64,000 nucleotides of DNA from TPA_inf: Saccharomyces (GCA_000146045.2 BK006934.2:224001-288000), one strand, 5' to 3'. Counted from the first letter of the stretch, positions 28,374 to 37,591 are shown. The notes: generated from the sequence alone by a model not told the origin. Translations and numbers: made by a program.

Positions 28374-31300
28374 TCAGTCGAAAGAACGTTTTAAAACAAT
28401 CTTTTTAATCTTGTTTCGCTCGGTTTTTAGTTTCTCTTCTTCTTCAAGGACATCAGAGACAAATTTCACATCCGTTGGTAATTGTAAAATTCTTGATTGT
28501 GTCTTCTTACCGCTTTTAGTCAAGAACGTAAATGCAATCTTCTTTGGCTTGGATAACTCTTCGTAGGTCTCCTTGCTTGAAGAAGGTTCTTCACTCTTTT
28601 TTAATAATAAAGGTTTTTGAACGCTGACTGGCTTCGAAATTACTGGAATTTTACTGGCAACAACCTTTTCGCTTTTCCTTGCGTCTATGGATTCTTGCAT
28701 CATTTTCTGAAATTGCCTTTCCAATTCTTCTTCCGCTTTCCTTTCTTCCTCATCCTTTAGTTTTCTCTCGTACTCTTCATACATTCGTTTCATTTCAATA
28801 TCTCTGTCTGCGTCAAGATCACCACCATACTCCAAATCAGAGTCGCTGTCTTCTTCTTCTTCATCATCATCATCCTCATCATCATCATCTTCATCATCAT
28901 CCTCATCGCCTTCTTCTCCATCATCATCATCATCGTCATCGTCATCGTCATCATCCTCGTCATCGTCCTCATCGTCTTCATCTTCACTTTCGTCTTGCTT
29001 TGCCTGATGTTTTCCTGGCGCTGACTCTGTGTTCGGTGTACTTATCTCCGCGTCTTCATCTTCTCCTAGTAAATCGACACCATCGTCGTTTTCATCATCT
29101 TCATCCTCATCATCTTCGGTGATTGACTCGATAGGAACAGCACTCTCCTTACCGTTGTGAATGCTTGCAGAAGATCCCTTCACTCTGTCGTCTTTACTTT
29201 TTATTGCGTTTAATGATTTCAGTAAACTTTCCAACCTTGAGGCACTTTCTACCAAATTTTCTGACCTTTCAAATTTAGTGTTTCCGAAAATATTCTCATA
29301 TTTTTTAAATGTGCTTGAAACTCTGAATTCTGTTTCCTTGGGTAAAGGTTGTTCTTTAATAAAAGTATAATACTCGAAAAACCTCAGCAAAAGTTTGCAT
29401 TTCTTAGTAAAAGCTGCAGGGGTCCTGTTGATATTTAACAGAATTGTAGTGACTAGTTGAATCCTGAAATAATTATCCGGTGGATCTGAGTAGTTTAAAT
29501 AAAATGGATTGGGTTGATTGTTGATATGACCAAACCGAATAATGTGGTAGATAGTATCTAACAAAACATCGGATTTTATCATTTCAAAGTTGAATATTTC
29601 AGTTAAGTATCTGACATTTGATATTCTATGCATGTTTTGTCCATAATCGTTAATTTCTAAGCCTCGCTCAATGTTTTCCAGTACTTGGTCTATACATCTG
29701 ATGACGAAATCGCGGCGGTAACTGTATAGACCGCCTAGAACTTTTGTTAATAAGGGAATATTTTGATAGCTAATCTTATGTGGTTTTGAAAACAGAGAAA
29801 ACAGCACTTTCTGAATAGCTACATCGTCCCAGTGAGCTTTCCGAACCAACTTGACAATGTGTTTGAAGTCTAGGCTACTTAGTTCACTTCTAATTAATAT
29901 GCGATAAAACTGTTGTTCAGGCGTTATTGTTTTTACCGTAACATTTAATGATTTTACAGAAGGGGGATAAAGTAAAGTAATTATGTTTTCTAAGGCGCTT
30001 TTCATGTTCATGTTCAATTGCCTATCATTTTTTTTATCCTTGATTAGTTGGACCATTTTTTCCATTAATTCCTTATATTCTGGCTTATTTAGCAGAAATT
30101 TCCCTGAGTGCTCCAACAAAACCGTCAAAATTTCTACGTTATTTGGAACTTGCATATACATGATTAATGTTCTAATCTTATGAAAAATCATAAACGATGG
30201 TATTAATTGAAATTTAATCATTTCACTGAAGAAGATGATGTTTTTAACGTTAATCTTATTAGAATGTAATTGACTCCTGAAGCCATTGTCTAGGTAGTTA
30301 ATAAACTCAGAAACAATTTCCGGCATATATTTGCTATTTGTTGCAATAAATCTGGAATACACTGGCAGTTTGCTCCAATCTTGTGTTTCCATGAAAAATT
30401 TCAATATTCGATTTCTTGTGGCTTTGTTGTCCAAATATGATGACCAATATCTATTTGAAAGGTCATCGATTATATCTTTACAATCTGCCATTTCCAAATC
30501 CGTAAAGAATAGATTGATATTTTTTGAGTTAACGTTTGAATCTTTTTCTGTTTTAGAAGATTGTGATTCTTCTACTGTTTTTGAGATATCTGGTAAGATT
30601 TCATAAAATTTCCTTGTATCTTCATTTTCCCATAATCGTTGGTTGGGTGGCAATATCTGATTCGTGATCATTGGAGAAGCTGTTTCTTTCAGATCATCAT
30701 TAGAGGCACCTTCAAGCTCCGGAATTTCTAACTTAAAAAATTCTCCCAAAGTAATTGCAGATGTCTTGAACCTAATGAATATTGGAAGTAACTTGTCGTA
30801 CTCCTCTACGTACTCATCTCTCAATTTTCCCGTTCTTATTTGGCATTTCTGATGTTCTCTTTGCAGTTTATTGACCTTCTTATGCAGTTCTGTGGCCCTC
30901 GCAAAAGTGGCGTCTATAAAATTCTTAAACAGAGACTGTAACGCACCTTTTAACTTCGAGTCATATATTAAATCATCCCAAGAATTATCATCGTCGCGAA
31001 ACAAAGGTGCAAATTTCTTAATAAATGCGGTCGCAATAGTGGTAGTAAAGCCCAATTTGAACTTATAATTAAGAATCTCTCTGAGAATACTGAATAACAA
31101 CGGATCCTTTCGCCCAGTTTTCTTCTGTAGGAAGTTTGGAATAGCATCTTTCGACTCAATATCATCCAATGTTCTAAAAACTCCAACTAAATAAAGCTCG
31201 GTAAATACCCGAAGATTACCTTTAACTCTGGTTATCCTTTGAAGCTCATCTCTTTCGGATTCAATGTCAACAGAGGGGTTCTCAAAAGCTTGTAAAAAAG

Positions 31301-31756
31301 CTCCTAAAAGCGGACTAGTAAATCGGCCATTGAACCTTTGATGAAGTCCACTTATGATCTCAACAGCGGCAATTACGTCATCATTTTTATTCAAAACATT
31401 TAGCAGACATTCTGTTACCGTCACTATTATCTCTGATAGGTACTTTTCCAAGGACGCCTCACTTAAATCTTTCAATAATGAAGATTCTGAACCTTTCACA
31501 AAACCCTTCTTTAGTTTTTTTATAAAGCCAGTGTTTCTCTTTATACTGGAATCCAGTTTTTTACTTTTCAGGGGAAAGACTTCTTCGCCATTCCAAGCTC
31601 GGGTGTTCAAATCATGCAATTCTTTTTTCCGTCCATCCTGTTGATACATAATTGTTACCGTAGTTTACAACGATCAATAAAAGAAGTTAGTATAAAACCT
31701 TAGAAGTACTGAAAGGCCGATCTGGCCACAGTAAGATAAATCAAACATACGTCCAT
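28374..31756 (-). CDS. NMD2: Nonsense-mediated decay factor Upf2. Minus-strand exon 1 is 31756..31751 (ATGGAC) and exon 2 is 31637..28374. The intron is 113 nt (31750..31638). The product is 1089 aa.
   Basis: The minus strand reads ATGGAC|GTATGTTTGATT ... TTTTATACTAACTTC ... TATCAACAG|GATGGACGGAAAAAAGAATTG. Exon 2 gives MDDGRKKELHDL. The ORF-track start MYQQ is an in-frame ATG inside the intron. MIF4G-like repeats and a long D/E tract are present. Confidence 0.85.
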
Positions 31757-32359
31757 AATTTCTGTCCAATGTATTATCAATGCAGATACAATATTAGATT
31801 ATTTAAGCATTTAAGTTGATTGTTACTGTTCATTGTAAAGTAATATGGGCCTCATTAGTTTCTCAAACCTGTATTCGAATGCAGTTTTTCAGTGACTGCC
31901 AAGAAAGTGAAAAAAAAAAAAAGAAGCAGGCTCCATCAATTCGTATCAAGTGATAATTATCACATAAATTATATAATTGTAAACCTATTAATAACCCTAA
32001 TATCATCCTCATGCCCTAAGAAATATTCAATATAACCCCCTAACAATATCATAATATCCCGTAGTGATCATAGAAACGCTATATGATGGTGCATAATTAA
32101 GATAAAGGTCATTCAGGCATGAAATAATGAACTTTAGTGAACGACTTAGTCATACAGAGTCTATTTTAGCTTAACCATTCGGTTTTATTTTACAGTCTAG
32201 ACTCAAACGAGTGAAAAATTGCGATATCTGCGATGACCGAGTCCTGAACAATAAAAATTGACCAGCAGGGAAAGAAAAGGAAAAGATCTCAACTCTGGCG
32301 GTTGCCTCCAGGACCTGCACTAGAAAGGACTATTGAGTGTAGACTAAGTGGTGGACGGG

Positions 32360-34018
32360 ATGGAGGCACTTATCGTATTTATAGTGCTTTCCGTATCCGG
32401 AGCATTTGCTTACAAATGCTCCTATGAAAGGCTCTGGTTTAAAGTAGGGTCTTTGTTTGACATTATATCAACTTCCTCGAAGAAAAATGTCATTCCGTTG
32501 GCAAGCAAAATGGAAGTTGGCTCGAATGAGGATGTGTCTAGTATGGGTAATTTCATAAATAAATTCTACACAGAGTATTCTTTACCCTCACATAAGGTAC
32601 TGCAATCACTGCGAGTCCTTTTTTCATTAGCAATGATGACGTATACAGTAACCATAGAGATTATTCTATGGCAGATTAAGGTTGCTGGAATGGACAAGGA
32701 AGTTACTTTCATAACGACTTGGGTGTGGCCTCTGACTGCAATCATGCTATCCTTCATACTAATTTTATTTCAGCCCTTTTTCATTATAATATCGTTACTG
32801 AATAAATTCTACAATGACAAGTTCGATATCGATAGGTTGATAATAGTGACATGCATAATCTTGTCCACACTTATTGCGCTGTTAAGTTACATAAATATTG
32901 GACCGTTCCAGTACACAAAAAATATTCTAACTAGATTGTCCATCGGAGGCGTCACAGTCATGGCTTCCCTATCTGGGTTAGCCACTGTTTCTAGTTTATA
33001 CTACAACTTTTTAGTCATCTGGCACAAGTTTCGTAATACACCAATGTCAGACCCCAGTTTTAGAAACATCAACAACAGCAACAATAACAGTAAATCTCTC
33101 TTATGGACAACAGACGCCTATATAGAGGAAAAAATCCAAGATTATGAACACAACATTGAACAAAATGTACAAATATTAAGAAGTTTAGAAGAAGAGGTCG
33201 GAGAAAACTCAACTTTTAAAGCAGAGTTGATGGAAAAAATCGCCTGGTATCAACTGGAGCTTGGGAAATTGGAAGCATTATTACAACAGTCCCCTCAGGT
33301 ACGCACTTTTAAGAAAGCTTTTGAAGTCGGGTTTATCATATACTGTCTTCATAAACTAATAATAACTTTCCTGAAAAGAATCCCCTATATCATATACCAC
33401 TCGCTCAAATATCCAGATGACTACGATTATGAAAATTTTAGTGAAAATGCAGCATCCGATCCTTTAGCCATTACGATAGCAAATATTTTGGATTTTTCGT
33501 TTTTCAGGTTCAATTACCAGCACGATCTCGATTCGTTAACAAAACAGATATCGTTATTTTTGTCAATTTCTCTCTTTCTTTGCTGTCTTTCTGCTGTCAA
33601 TACCACCATCTCCTACGTTGTGACCCTTTTGCCCATAAAGTTCCAGATTCTTGCACTTTTCGCCATGCAGAATGATGACACTGCTAATGTACTTCCAGAG
33701 TACACCAATAACTCTTCCTATAAGGGAAAAAAGAGAAACTATTCTCAGGAACAAAAAGGAATATCTTTGATAAAAAATCTGGTGGTGTCAGAGTTGACTG
33801 GCGTCTACGTTTTGGCTACAACGCTAATGGTTAGGTCCCATCTCCCTTTTGAAGTATCACAAAGATTAAAGGAGCTATTGGGTGGAAAGTTTACCGTCCC
33901 AAACATTGTCATAGATTCTTGGTTTGATGAAGTCTACGCTTTTGCATGTGTGTTTACCTTTATTTGCATAAGAATTGCAGAACGAAAGCTTTCCACCAAA
34001 AAAGTCAGTGTTGAATAA
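32360..34018 (+). CDS. Uncharacterised multi-pass membrane protein, Golgi pH regulator / GPR89-like family, 552 aa
   Basis: Multiple long hydrophobic segments flank a central coiled-coil-like hydrophilic loop. Position matches YHR078W. I trimmed the start to MEALIVFIV, 4 codons inside the ORF-track start. Confidence 0.7.
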   Translation: MEALIVFIVLSVSGAFAYKCSYERLWFKVGSLFDIISTSSKKNVIPLASKMEVGSNEDVSSMGNFINKFYTEYSLPSHKVLQSLRVLFSLAMMTYTVTIEIILWQIKVAGMDKEVTFITTWVWPLTAIMLSFILILFQPFFIIISLLNKFYNDKFDIDRLIIVTCIILSTLIALLSYINIGPFQYTKNILTRLSIGGVTVMASLSGLATVSSLYYNFLVIWHKFRNTPMSDPSFRNINNSNNNSKSLLWTTDAYIEEKIQDYEHNIEQNVQILRSLEEEVGENSTFKAELMEKIAWYQLELGKLEALLQQSPQVRTFKKAFEVGFIIYCLHKLIITFLKRIPYIIYHSLKYPDDYDYENFSENAASDPLAITIANILDFSFFRFNYQHDLDSLTKQISLFLSISLFLCCLSAVNTTISYVVTLLPIKFQILALFAMQNDDTANVLPEYTNNSSYKGKKRNYSQEQKGISLIKNLVVSELTGVYVLATTLMVRSHLPFEVSQRLKELLGGKFTVPNIVIDSWFDEVYAFACVFTFICIRIAERKLSTKKVSVE

Positions 34019-34243
34019 CTGGAGTAGTATGTCGATGTTCGATGTTTATGAGATATGTATTTATAAAATTAAATGTCTGTCGGGTAGTTTATGTAGGGAT
34101 GAGAAAAGTAGTATAGGTTCATGAAGAAGTACAACTTTTTTTCATTTATGCAAGGGCGTAAAAATTATGGATGGTTACTACTAATGATCAAAGTAACATT
34201 AATGCAATAATCAACCAAGAAGAAGCAGAGGGGCATGAACATG

Positions 34244-37200
34244 TTATGAATACAAAAATTCACGTAAAATTTGATCGTCACTTAAATTTTCCTTGACAAT
34301 CATATAAACACCTATTAATAGGTTTGGAAAACGCTTGGTGAAGTAATCGTAAAATCCATCGGGTACCGGCCCCATTAGTTCTGCTATATCTTCAGGTAAA
34401 TCCATAAAATGATGATATTTATTCCTAAGTGCTCTTAATAGATCCATTAACTTTGATGAATGGTATTTTCTGTACCTTTCAAGGTTGTCCATGAATGTTT
34501 TATCAAACTTGACAGTCCAATCTCCACTGGGTATTACAAAGTCAGAACCGGCGTCAAATTTCATTAACAGGGCACTTGGAGGGTCTCTGTTTTCAATTTC
34601 AAGCCTATCACTAACTTTTAAAAGGAACTCCAATTTTTTCGACTTTGGCCAAAACAACGGATGCCTTAGAACTTTCATAGCAGTAGGTCTTTTTAACGGA
34701 TCGTGATCAATCATTTGGGAGATCAGATCTGTAGCTTCTGCAATTAAGGATCTATCATGTAGACATTTCATTTCATCAAGACTGAATATTCCTCTTATGA
34801 TATTGCTTTCACGTGAATATTTATCTCCAAATGGATGCTTCCCTTTGGATAGGATATAATAGAATACACATCCCATAGAAAAAATATCAATAGATCTTGT
34901 TAGCCTCCTCTTGGTGAACGGATCATAAAAAGAATCAGATGAAACTACTGTATGCCTACTAGAAGAGTGTTCCGTTTCGACTTGGCACTGCAAATTGTTT
35001 GATTCTTCAAGCAGCTCTGGGGCCCTCCAACCACTTGTGCCAGAAGGGTTATTCAAATTTGTTCTAAATGAAGACTGACCAGAGTCTAGTTTTTTGCAAA
35101 GACCAAAGTCTGATATCAAAATTCGAAGATTTTCTGCTCCTGTTTGCTGATCGGCAGTAAACCTACTCGAAGTAGAAACGAGAATATTTTGAGGCTTTAA
35201 ATCTCGATGGATAATCTTTAAAGAATGTAAATGTGCTACCCCGGACGCTATTTGTCTCAATAACGAAATTGGATTATACTCTTTCTGTAATTTCAGGTTT
35301 TCATCTGATACATTCTTAGACTCCACCAAATCTTGAAGGTTCAAATTGCAGAGCTCTAAAGCAATATACAAAAATCTGTCTGTTGTTTCTGAACAGTAGT
35401 ATCGTATGACGTTAGGGTGATCATCGCTTTCAGTCAAAAGTTTTATTTCCATTAAAGCTATGTCACAAAAATCAATTAACATTCTCTTTACCGCAACAGG
35501 TCTTCCTTGAAAACTTCCCTGAAAAACTACTGTTCCTGATGAACCGTAACCTAAAATTTTTTCGGATACTACCAAATTTTTTAAAGATTGCTCAAAGTTT
35601 GGTATATTTGCAATGCGTGATTTTCGGCCCTTTTTGCCTCCTCTCGAACCTCTTTTCCTCTTCTTCTTTTCTGTGGTTAAATCTAGTGATTTTTCATCAT
35701 CTTCATCAGCATCATCGTTATCTTTTTCAGATTTTAGACTTCCATCGTTCACAGCACCTTCAAAAACAACTTGCTTCCCTGATTTCATATCGAATGGCTT
35801 GGTTACATTTTCCGATGAAGAGGGACAATTTAGCGATTTCGACTCAACTATGGGGATTTCCTTTTCAGGCATAAATCCAATTTTGGATAATAATACATAT
35901 AGTGGCGGCAAAATTTTGAATCTTTGTAGTATTGCACAAAAAATGAGAAATAACAACAGAAATACTCCAGTCTCTATAATTCGATATACTAGACTTCCAA
36001 ACTTCAGTAGCAAAGAATTTTGGTTCTTTTCATCTAATTCTCTCGATATTTGCTCGTGTATCTTTTTTCTATATGCCTCAAGGTCTTCTGGTGACATGTA
36101 TTCCTTTAGTGAATTCATCTCGTTATTCTGATGTAAATCGGTTGTATCAACGGACGAATCAATCATCAGAGGTGGATATTTGTGCGTAGTGTCCAAACTA
36201 TTCGTTTTTTCATAGTTTTCATAAAGGTGATCATATTCATTATTATATATCTGATGAACACCCATGATTGCGTTCTTGAATAAAGTCTCATCTTCAAAAA
36301 TTGAAGACACCCTCCAACGGTCACTGGAAGCGTATCTTGATATGGGAGCTGATTCGACTAAAGATGGAAAATTCTGACTAGATAATGCAAACCAGGAGAG
36401 GTTCGAAGTCTGATCCAAGTAAACTTTGTTACTCGATATACTTTCATGATCACCAGGATTAAAGGGATGCGGTACCAGTATATTTTCATTGGTGCGGAGA
36501 TCATTAAACACATCGAAAAGCCCAACAATAATTCCGGGGAATGTCGGAGAAACCCATCTAGCAATTCTAAAATCTAAATCGCTTGCTAGCAATGATTTAT
36601 CACGGAAAGGCGCTATGCACATGCCGTCCTTTGAAAATGTATTCTGAAGCGCTAGGGGAACATCTAAAACATTTTGCTGCCATGTAGAGTAAGTGACATT
36701 GTAGCTTGCTCCATCATAAGAGTGAATTCCCAGCTCAAAAATAGTTTTGCCTATTACAATCATATTTTCACATTCCTGAAGTTTTATCTTCTCCTCAGGT
36801 GAGCAATCCACACTCTGGCTCCCGAAATACCCGTTTTTTGAACCAGGTCCGAACGCTGATATAATTTCACCATTCAACATGTTTATAGTATACATTATAG
36901 TTCTCATCGATCCAGTGTAGACCTTTTCATCTTCAACAATTTTTCCAGAGTCATTAACCACAATATTTGTTTTCAAGTGCAGCGGGGAAGTTGATACAAG
37001 TTGTCGTATGGATAAAGGCAGTTTTTGTAACCCTTGATGGGCGTTAAAGTAGTAAATGTTCCCATCACCGAAAGGTTCTATAATCAACGTTTCATATGTT
37101 TCTAACCTCGAAGGTTCTTGTATTTCTATCAGAGGTTGAAAATTTTCTGGTTCGATTGACCATATGATATGACCATTTCTTCTATCTACAGCATGAAGTC

Positions 37201-37591
37201 CACCCTCAACGTCGGCTGCGATTAGTATATCTGATAAACTCAGTTCGTTCAAGGAACGATTCTCCAAATAGGGTACACTTATAGAATTGGCAGCCCTACG
37301 TCCTTTTTTGTTAGCACGTCGATTATCAGCAGTATTCAATAAGTTAGGAGTTGGATATGAGCTGAGTTTCATATTTGGTAAACCTTCAGTGGTTCTTGGA
37401 GCAGGAATGGGCGAGTTTATATTTTTATCCACACCATAGTTGAAATTGAGCTTTTTAGTGGAGGCAACTTCATCTTCCACTATCTGCCGCCTTGAGGTGC
37501 GAGACGACAATGGGATTGAGCATGAAATGATGGATGAAAACACACAAACGAGCAGTGTCAATACTAACATGTTTCTTCGAAGTAGACGCAT
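34244..37591 (-). CDS. IRE1: Unfolded-protein-response transmembrane Ser/Thr kinase and endoribonuclease, 1115 aa
   Basis: Signal peptide, luminal domain, a transmembrane segment, a kinase domain (HRDLKPQNIL, DFG) and a C-terminal KEN/RNase domain. Confidence 0.9.
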   Translation of the reverse strand: MRLLRRNMLVLTLLVCVFSSIISCSIPLSSRTSRRQIVEDEVASTKKLNFNYGVDKNINSPIPAPRTTEGLPNMKLSSYPTPNLLNTADNRRANKKGRRAANSISVPYLENRSLNELSLSDILIAADVEGGLHAVDRRNGHIIWSIEPENFQPLIEIQEPSRLETYETLIIEPFGDGNIYYFNAHQGLQKLPLSIRQLVSTSPLHLKTNIVVNDSGKIVEDEKVYTGSMRTIMYTINMLNGEIISAFGPGSKNGYFGSQSVDCSPEEKIKLQECENMIVIGKTIFELGIHSYDGASYNVTYSTWQQNVLDVPLALQNTFSKDGMCIAPFRDKSLLASDLDFRIARWVSPTFPGIIVGLFDVFNDLRTNENILVPHPFNPGDHESISSNKVYLDQTSNLSWFALSSQNFPSLVESAPISRYASSDRWRVSSIFEDETLFKNAIMGVHQIYNNEYDHLYENYEKTNSLDTTHKYPPLMIDSSVDTTDLHQNNEMNSLKEYMSPEDLEAYRKKIHEQISRELDEKNQNSLLLKFGSLVYRIIETGVFLLLFLIFCAILQRFKILPPLYVLLSKIGFMPEKEIPIVESKSLNCPSSSENVTKPFDMKSGKQVVFEGAVNDGSLKSEKDNDDADEDDEKSLDLTTEKKKRKRGSRGGKKGRKSRIANIPNFEQSLKNLVVSEKILGYGSSGTVVFQGSFQGRPVAVKRMLIDFCDIALMEIKLLTESDDHPNVIRYYCSETTDRFLYIALELCNLNLQDLVESKNVSDENLKLQKEYNPISLLRQIASGVAHLHSLKIIHRDLKPQNILVSTSSRFTADQQTGAENLRILISDFGLCKKLDSGQSSFRTNLNNPSGTSGWRAPELLEESNNLQCQVETEHSSSRHTVVSSDSFYDPFTKRRLTRSIDIFSMGCVFYYILSKGKHPFGDKYSRESNIIRGIFSLDEMKCLHDRSLIAEATDLISQMIDHDPLKRPTAMKVLRHPLFWPKSKKLEFLLKVSDRLEIENRDPPSALLMKFDAGSDFVIPSGDWTVKFDKTFMDNLERYRKYHSSKLMDLLRALRNKYHHFMDLPEDIAELMGPVPDGFYDYFTKRFPNLLIGVYMIVKENLSDDQILREFLYS

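Follow-up and report, generated by a model that had tools for sequence, protein, structure and literature searches.

The question raised by the gene YHR078W of Saccharomyces is what kind of membrane protein it encodes, and how far the activities ascribed to its relatives in other eukaryotes can be carried over to yeast. We approached this question through a computational analysis of a 64,000-nucleotide stretch of Saccharomyces DNA (TPA_inf; GCA_000146045.2, BK006934.2:224001-288000; hereafter the window, with positions counted from its first letter), in which the gene occupies positions 32360-34018 of the plus strand. As securely as computation allows, sequence and modelled structure identify the gene product as budding yeast's orthologue within the GPHR/GPR89/GTG family, which is found across eukaryotes. 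In our alignments it keeps the residues that are conserved throughout this family and lacks all five basic residues on which the pH function of human GPR89 has been reported to depend.

The identification of the locus and its coordinates are sound. An open reading frame (ORF) scan and the translation give a single unbroken frame of 552 codons plus stop, with its ATG at 32360. With a local GC content near 37%, stops would make up about 7% of random codons, and we estimate the probability that a frame of 552 codons stays open by chance at about 1e-17. No other ORF of at least 80 amino acids (aa) overlaps this frame on either strand. A database protein is 100% identical to the window product, and the orthologues of sister species are 86-89% identical to it; the NCBI name of the S. 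arboricola orthologue is 'YHR078W', and orthologues are named YHR078W, Golgi pH regulator or ABA GPCR (where ABA stands for abscisic acid and GPCR for G protein-coupled receptor) in UniRef and NCBI. Together with the two Pfam domains described below, the frame and the identical database protein mark 32360..34018 (+) as the complete coding sequence of a GPHR/GPR89/GTG-family protein at a locus consistent with YHR078W, in agreement with a preliminary description of this DNA that had placed a 552-aa YHR078W product here. The ORF scan lists the frame from a GTG at 32348, four codons 5' of the ATG. The N-terminal extension from this GTG is an artefact, as the scan applies a start-codon rule for bacteria: the frame has a stop at 32345, the first ATG after it is that at 32360, and the Saccharomyces orthologues, which begin with MEALIVF or MEDLIVF, start at this same ATG.

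Membership in the family is documented by profile methods. ABA_GPCR (PF12430) matches aa 312-542 (33293..33985, +) with E=2.6e-53 and 180.9 bits against a cut-off of 22.1 bits, covering positions 5-180 of the 180 in the profile, and GPHR_N (PF12537) matches aa 183-260 (32906..33139, +) with E=4.3e-14 and 52.8 bits against the same cut-off of 22.1 bits, covering positions 1-66 of 68. Both domains are present in every full-length orthologue from the Saccharomycetaceae. When the yeast alignment was compared by hhalign with an alignment of vertebrate and protist GPHR proteins, the two matched with a probability of 98.5% (E=2.7e-15; 388 columns) over nearly their full length (yeast 64-548 to GPHR 24-452). 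The preliminary description had assigned the protein to the GPHR/GPR89 family, a proposal against which the lack of any profile match would have spoken; the two domains and the hhalign match uphold it. Word-indexed homologue searches, run with the single sequence or with a profile, returned matches from Saccharomycetaceae only, so that it took an exhaustive profile search to connect them with other fungi and with protists. This search, conducted over 1.84 billion cluster representatives, retrieved 272 relatives at E<=1e-3, which grade continuously from other budding yeasts through Yarrowia, a Pezizomycete, and chytrid and zoopagomycete fungi to protists. The family link itself is not new: it is public in the UniRef and NCBI names, and it has been in print since 2015, when a paper equated YHR078W, in a table, with gpr-12 of Neurospora crassa, a family member listed under class XI (GPCR89/ABA-GPCR).

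Hydropathy analysis places hydrophobic segments in aa 1-184 and aa 320-540, with a hydrophilic, acidic stretch between them (aa 226-311; 7 K+R versus 15 D+E). We modelled the protein with AlphaFold2 from 25 Saccharomycetaceae orthologues and obtained a predicted template modelling score (pTM) of 0.69 and a mean predicted local distance difference test score (pLDDT) of 67.8; block values were 70-90 in most membrane helices, lower in transmembrane helix (TM) 7, and about 61-73 in the hairpin that follows TM5. The model predicts nine membrane helices, five before this hairpin and four after it: TM1-TM5 at aa 2-36, 78-108, 117-150, 157-177 and 189-225, two antiparallel hairpin helices at aa 252-279 and 285-308, and TM6-TM9 at aa 312-350, 387-423, 470-494 and 515-549. 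It thereby reproduces what a 2025 preprint gives as the structural signature of the family, nine helices with a hairpin between TM5 and TM6. Two blocks of hydrophobic helices split by a hydrophilic, coiled-coil-like loop had also been read from the sequence in the preliminary description, and hydropathy and model agree with that reading; the loop peptide quoted there, EEKIQDYEHNIEQNVQILRSLEEEVGE, corresponds to aa 256-282, and the loop itself to the predicted hairpin of the TM5-TM6 linker (33113..33283, +). Since the odd-numbered loops carry 18 K+R residues and the even-numbered ones 6, we infer by the positive-inside rule that the N-terminus would be lumenal and that the hairpin and the C-terminus would be cytosolic.

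This architecture bears on the idea that the protein is a true GPCR, as the GPR89 naming, the claim that plant GTG proteins are abscisic-acid receptors, and the fungal 'class XI' lists would have it. The name of the Pfam domain and the fungal GPCR classifications that list the family are in its favour, but nine helices are predicted and not seven, a motif scan of YHR078W found no Walker A, NKxD or DxxG nucleotide-binding motif, and searches of the PDB gave no meaningful match to receptors with seven transmembrane helices (7TM). With the yeast model as query, nothing was found at E<=1e-3, and 7TM receptors appeared as weak, partial matches only. Plant GTG1/GTG2 and COLD1-type proteins belong to the same Pfam family by name, a comparison that we draw without plant sequences; their abscisic-acid-receptor and GTPase activities have been questioned, and the yeast protein is devoid of nucleotide-binding motifs. 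We regard the GPCR interpretation as close to refuted. PDB searches by sequence, whether with the protein or with the 25-sequence profile, likewise returned no solved structure with the same fold, and gave only chance matches to coiled coils.

The relationship between the yeast protein and mammalian GPHR (GPR89A/B) combines a shared overall plan with extensive divergence. Both Pfam domains, homology of the profiles over nearly the full length, nine helices and a cytosolic TM5-TM6 hairpin are common to the two, whereas their identity is only about 20% and is visible only with profiles. To compare residues across this distance, we used a bridging alignment of 42 sequences that reaches from yeast to vertebrates and includes 19 named taxa, with the database entry P0197 (a vertebrate Golgi pH regulator of 455 aa) as the reference; a human GPR89A query served solely for retrieving entries from the database. 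In twelve columns, conservation across the 42 sequences reaches 90% or more, and YHR078W carries the conserved residue in all twelve (yeast/GPHR: F88/F44, W123/W75, P139/P91, G197/G154, L204/L161, G206/G163, Y328/Y296, C329/C297, D367/D317, L474/L381, G481/G388 and Y483/Y390). Three further positions are kept in 19 of 19 named taxa when conservative exchanges are counted, i.e., K332/K300 (K/R), R492/R399 (R/K) and D523/D427 (D/E), and W521/W425 is widely kept across the family. Conserved residues fall in TM2, TM3, TM5, TM6, a D-P motif before TM7, TM8 and TM9. The N-terminal membrane block with the predicted helices TM1-TM5 (32363..33034, +) contains W123, P139, G197, L204 and G206, while the ABA_GPCR region, which spans TM6-TM9, holds Y328, C329, K332, D367, G481, Y483, R492, W521 and D523.

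The location of these residues matters for a second interpretation, according to which the protein does not itself transport anything but serves as a membrane scaffold or escort, in the manner of LIMR/LMBR1 proteins such as LMBRD1, which escorts ABCD4. Proteins of this type (PF04791) have been reported as the closest structural neighbours of human GPR89 and share with it nine helices and a TM5-TM6 linker. The yeast protein, in contrast, has no sequence match to them, as the LMBR1 Pfam domain remained unmatched even at E<=10, and a LIMR-type fold was absent from the matches of the yeast protein in both of the PDB searches. Moreover, the family-conserved residues lie within the membrane helices and not on the hairpin, a distribution more in keeping with an active site embedded in the membrane than with a docking surface. 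A pure scaffold function appears quite improbable to us.

What such a membrane-embedded protein might do in yeast is suggested by its relatives. Mammalian GPHR has been described as a Golgi anion channel that is needed for acidification; human GPR89 acts with the V-ATPase to set the pH of the endoplasmic reticulum (ER) and the Golgi and has been described as regulating ER pH in tumours; and the Dictyostelium family protein is found in the ER and the Golgi, with mutants displaying trafficking defects. We favour, at a rough probability of 0.5, the reading that YHR078W provides a counter-ion shunt of the early secretory pathway through the conserved TM5-TM7 groove, with a selectivity perhaps unlike that of the animal channel. 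The protein would reside in ER/Golgi membranes, as it does in animals, plants and Dictyostelium, and the TM5-TM7 groove would offer a passive pathway for an ion or a small solute. Its likeliest role would be that of an anion counter-ion shunt that allows the V-ATPase to acidify the early secretory pathway, and it would probably work alongside other yeast pathways, e.g., the CLC protein Gef1 and cation/proton exchangers. Gef1 and several exchangers have indeed been discussed as determinants of yeast Golgi pH, and redundancy of this kind would account for the fact that no phenotype has pointed to YHR078W. A 2026 review reports that the knockout of N. crassa gpr-12 has no phenotype, and it calls the fungal class 'entirely uncharacterized'. 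Beyond the 2015 equivalence table, the searched literature mentions YHR078W in a list of chromosome VIII genes; neither mention is functional, and this is in line with the statement in the preliminary description that the protein has no assigned function and that its role in yeast is unexplored.

Several considerations weigh against a counter-ion shunt. The searched literature yielded no functional study of YHR078W, and neither localization data nor pH or anion-conductance data from yeast; the location and the topology that we assign to the protein are themselves predictions. The activity of the family is disputed, with an anion channel, oligopeptide uptake and an SLC-like carrier as the competing proposals, and we found no solved structure of a family member that could settle the matter. 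BLASTP finds only borderline similarity between the yeast protein and vertebrate P0197 (28% over 76 aa; 18% over 78 aa; E ~1e-3). To these points are added the residues that the yeast protein lacks. According to a 2026 paper, the charge reversals K76E, K126E, R312E, H423D and R424D abolish the ER-pH function of human GPR89. In YHR078W, none of the five positions (0/5) is basic: P124 stands in place of K76, E362 in place of R312, D519 in place of H423, S520 in place of R424, and, depending on the alignment, Y177 or N179 in place of K126. Two of the five yeast positions are thus naturally in the 'reversed' charge state. The groove residue R357 has also lost its basic character and is replaced by S411 or I417, again depending on the alignment. 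Conserved W and WFD motifs anchor the alignment at positions 76, 423 and 424, while positions 126 and 312 are aligned less securely; no alternative alignment of the latter two gives a basic yeast residue.

According to the alignment, the human-type basic residues have been lost stepwise across the fungi. All five are kept in vertebrates and in the protist Ancoracysta; four are present in Chytridium, Neoconidiobolus and the stramenopile Platysulcus, three in the Pezizomycete Trichophaea, two in Yarrowia and Trichomonascus, one in Blastobotrys, none in Wickerhamomyces, and 0-1 in the Saccharomycetaceae, which in this respect are the most derived fungal branch in comparison with the Pezizomycete, Yarrowia, and the chytrid and zoopagomycete fungi. 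The yeast clade has invariant or nearly invariant basic residues of its own, i.e., R85, K149, K472 and R492. Since all five human basic residues are replaced, the selectivity or the substrate of the yeast protein may differ from that of the animal channel; for the same reason, an anion shunt is plausible but weaker for yeast than the preliminary description implied. An anion-channel or pH role of the yeast protein is an extrapolation from its relatives. The authors of the human study noted that the five residues sit at or near helix ends, so that these residues may set the topology of the protein rather than line a pore. The residue-level divergence that the alignment suggests is the sole new element of our analysis; it is a modest point, and it tempers the extrapolation of the anion channel to yeast.

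The same residues are at the center of a further interpretation, namely that the protein is an SLC-like carrier for a small organic solute, e.g., short peptides, and that the pH effects seen in relatives are secondary. TbGPR89 of Trypanosoma brucei belongs to the same family, and nine helices have been reported for it; it differs, by the description on which we draw here, in its location at the cell surface and its reported import of oligopeptides for quorum sensing. When present in E. coli, TbGPR89 takes up beta-Ala-Lys-AMCA in a manner sensitive to carbonyl cyanide m-chlorophenyl hydrazone (CCCP), and the Y48H substitution cuts this uptake by about 40%. In the 2025 preprint, human GPR89 is grouped with SLC-like folds, and peptides are docked into its TM5-TM7 groove. 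Without the basic residues tied to anion function, yeast keeps polar or aromatic groove residues: Y483 and D523 match Y390 and D427 of the human groove, and K332 falls at position 300, for which the preprint lists R300 and P0197 has K. On the other hand, the POT-like model of TbGPR89 was obtained by threading, and its own authors say that it misrepresents the fold; a comparison of the yeast model with POT/MFS structures gave PepTSt as the best POT match at E=2.5, with template modelling scores (TM-scores) of 0.12-0.15, so that an MFS-type fold is not recovered. Likewise, the SLC placement rests on approximate predicted TM-scores, and a substrate is known for no fungal member. We consider a carrier possible but on the whole rather unlikely, and continue to prefer the counter-ion shunt.

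A related proposal concerns the family as a whole. Since budding yeasts keep the family core and have progressively shed the human-type basic residues, the ancestral activity would not be anion conduction, but carrier-type transport or another membrane-embedded function. We judge this unlikely, if only a little more so than a carrier in yeast itself; under such a reading, the anion or pH role could have been retained outside the Dikarya, or could be an indirect effect.

The model is of low confidence at aa 35-76 in the TM1-TM2 loop, aa 228-249 at the start of the central loop, aa 361-371 in the TM6-TM7 loop, and aa 435-467 in the TM7-TM8 loop. The protein is 97 aa longer than P0197, with insertions in the TM1-TM2, TM6-TM7 and TM7-TM8 loops. 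The TM1-TM2 loop (aa 35-76; 32462..32587, +) is far longer than that of animal GPHR, has pLDDT values below 50 at aa 35-67 and 70-76, and varies between orthologues; aa 1-63 fall outside the hhalign match to GPHR. The TM7-TM8 loop (aa 435-467; 33662..33760, +) is an Asn/Lys-rich insertion with pLDDT values below 50 and contains the most hydrophilic point of the entire protein; it has no counterpart in animal GPHR and faces a gap opposite vertebrate GPHR in the hhalign alignment. GPHR_N spans the loop between TM4 and TM5, TM5 itself and the first part of the cytosolic loop. The C-terminus reads ...KKVSVE, which is not the canonical KKXX motif.

YHR078W sits between NMD2, whose product has MIF4G and Upf2 domains, and IRE1 (34244-37591, -), whose product has Pkinase and Ribonuc_2-5A domains. 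The upstream intergenic region had to be redefined. The ORF listed for NMD2 (28374-31649) begins within an intron, so that the real start of this gene is at 31756: the true ATG lies at 31756-31754 (-), and, as read from window positions 31638-31756, ATG GAC at 31756-31751 is followed by a 113-nucleotide intron (-) with GTATGT at 31750-31745, the branch point TACTAAC at 31692-31686 and CAG at 31640-31638. The spliced start of NMD2 reads MDDGRKKELHDL... With this correction, the divergent promoter common to YHR078W and NMD2 measures 603 bp (31757..32359) and not 710 bp. A motif scan of this region found a single CCCCT resembling a stress response element (STRE) at 32037-32041, 323 bp 5' of the YHR078W ATG, and no consensus for the unfolded protein response element (UPRE), the cAMP response element (CRE) or a TATA box. 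The sole functional hint for YHR078W is an NCBI name that carries the label 'high osmolarity-regulated gene of unknown function'; one STRE pentamer is too weak either to support or to explain it. Two side observations concern NMD2 itself. A 96-aa ORF at 31354-31644 (+) runs antisense to the 5' end of the gene and is probably a chance frame, as we found no evidence for a gene. In addition, NMD2 contains a very long Asp/Glu run at residues ~800-915 (window ~28900-29250, -; ...DEDDEDDDEDDDDDDDDDDDDGEEGDEDDDEDDDDEDDDDEEEEDSDSD...), a low-complexity coding sequence that could confuse scans for repeats or composition.

On its downstream side, YHR078W converges with IRE1 across a shared 3' intergenic spacer of 225 bp (34019..34243). 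Human GPR89 has been linked to IRE1alpha via ER pH in a 2026 paper, and the adjacency of the two yeast genes might be taken as an echo of this link. We reject this, as the adjacency is not conserved: in Lachancea thermotolerans, genes for a WD40 and a Cnd3 protein stand between the GPHR orthologue and IRE1, and in Wickerhamomyces ciferrii these two genes have kept their place downstream of the GPHR orthologue, with a gene for a glycosyl hydrolase intervening, but the block has no IRE1. We regard the neighbourhood of YHR078W and IRE1 as a coincidence of ordinary synteny. Upstream of the GPHR orthologue, both species have a gene for a FYVE-domain protein; it is directly adjacent and divergent in Lachancea (L001 6298-7857) and lies three genes away in Wickerhamomyces (L002 3805-5178). 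In the window, the upstream neighbour of YHR078W is NMD2.

Taken by itself, YHR078W is an ordinary orphan gene that is already annotated; databases have carried its family assignment for years. Its wider interest stems from the family to which it belongs: GPHR/GPR89 proteins are present in nearly all eukaryotes and their molecular activity is contested, their loss is embryonic lethal in mice, and a dependence of tumours on human GPR89 has been reported. A yeast member that is non-essential and present in a single copy would allow inexpensive genetics to decide between channel and carrier, and it would also serve the question of what determines pH in the early secretory pathway of yeast. Should the ancestral activity of the family prove to be something other than anion conduction, yeast would be the cleanest system for defining its core activity.
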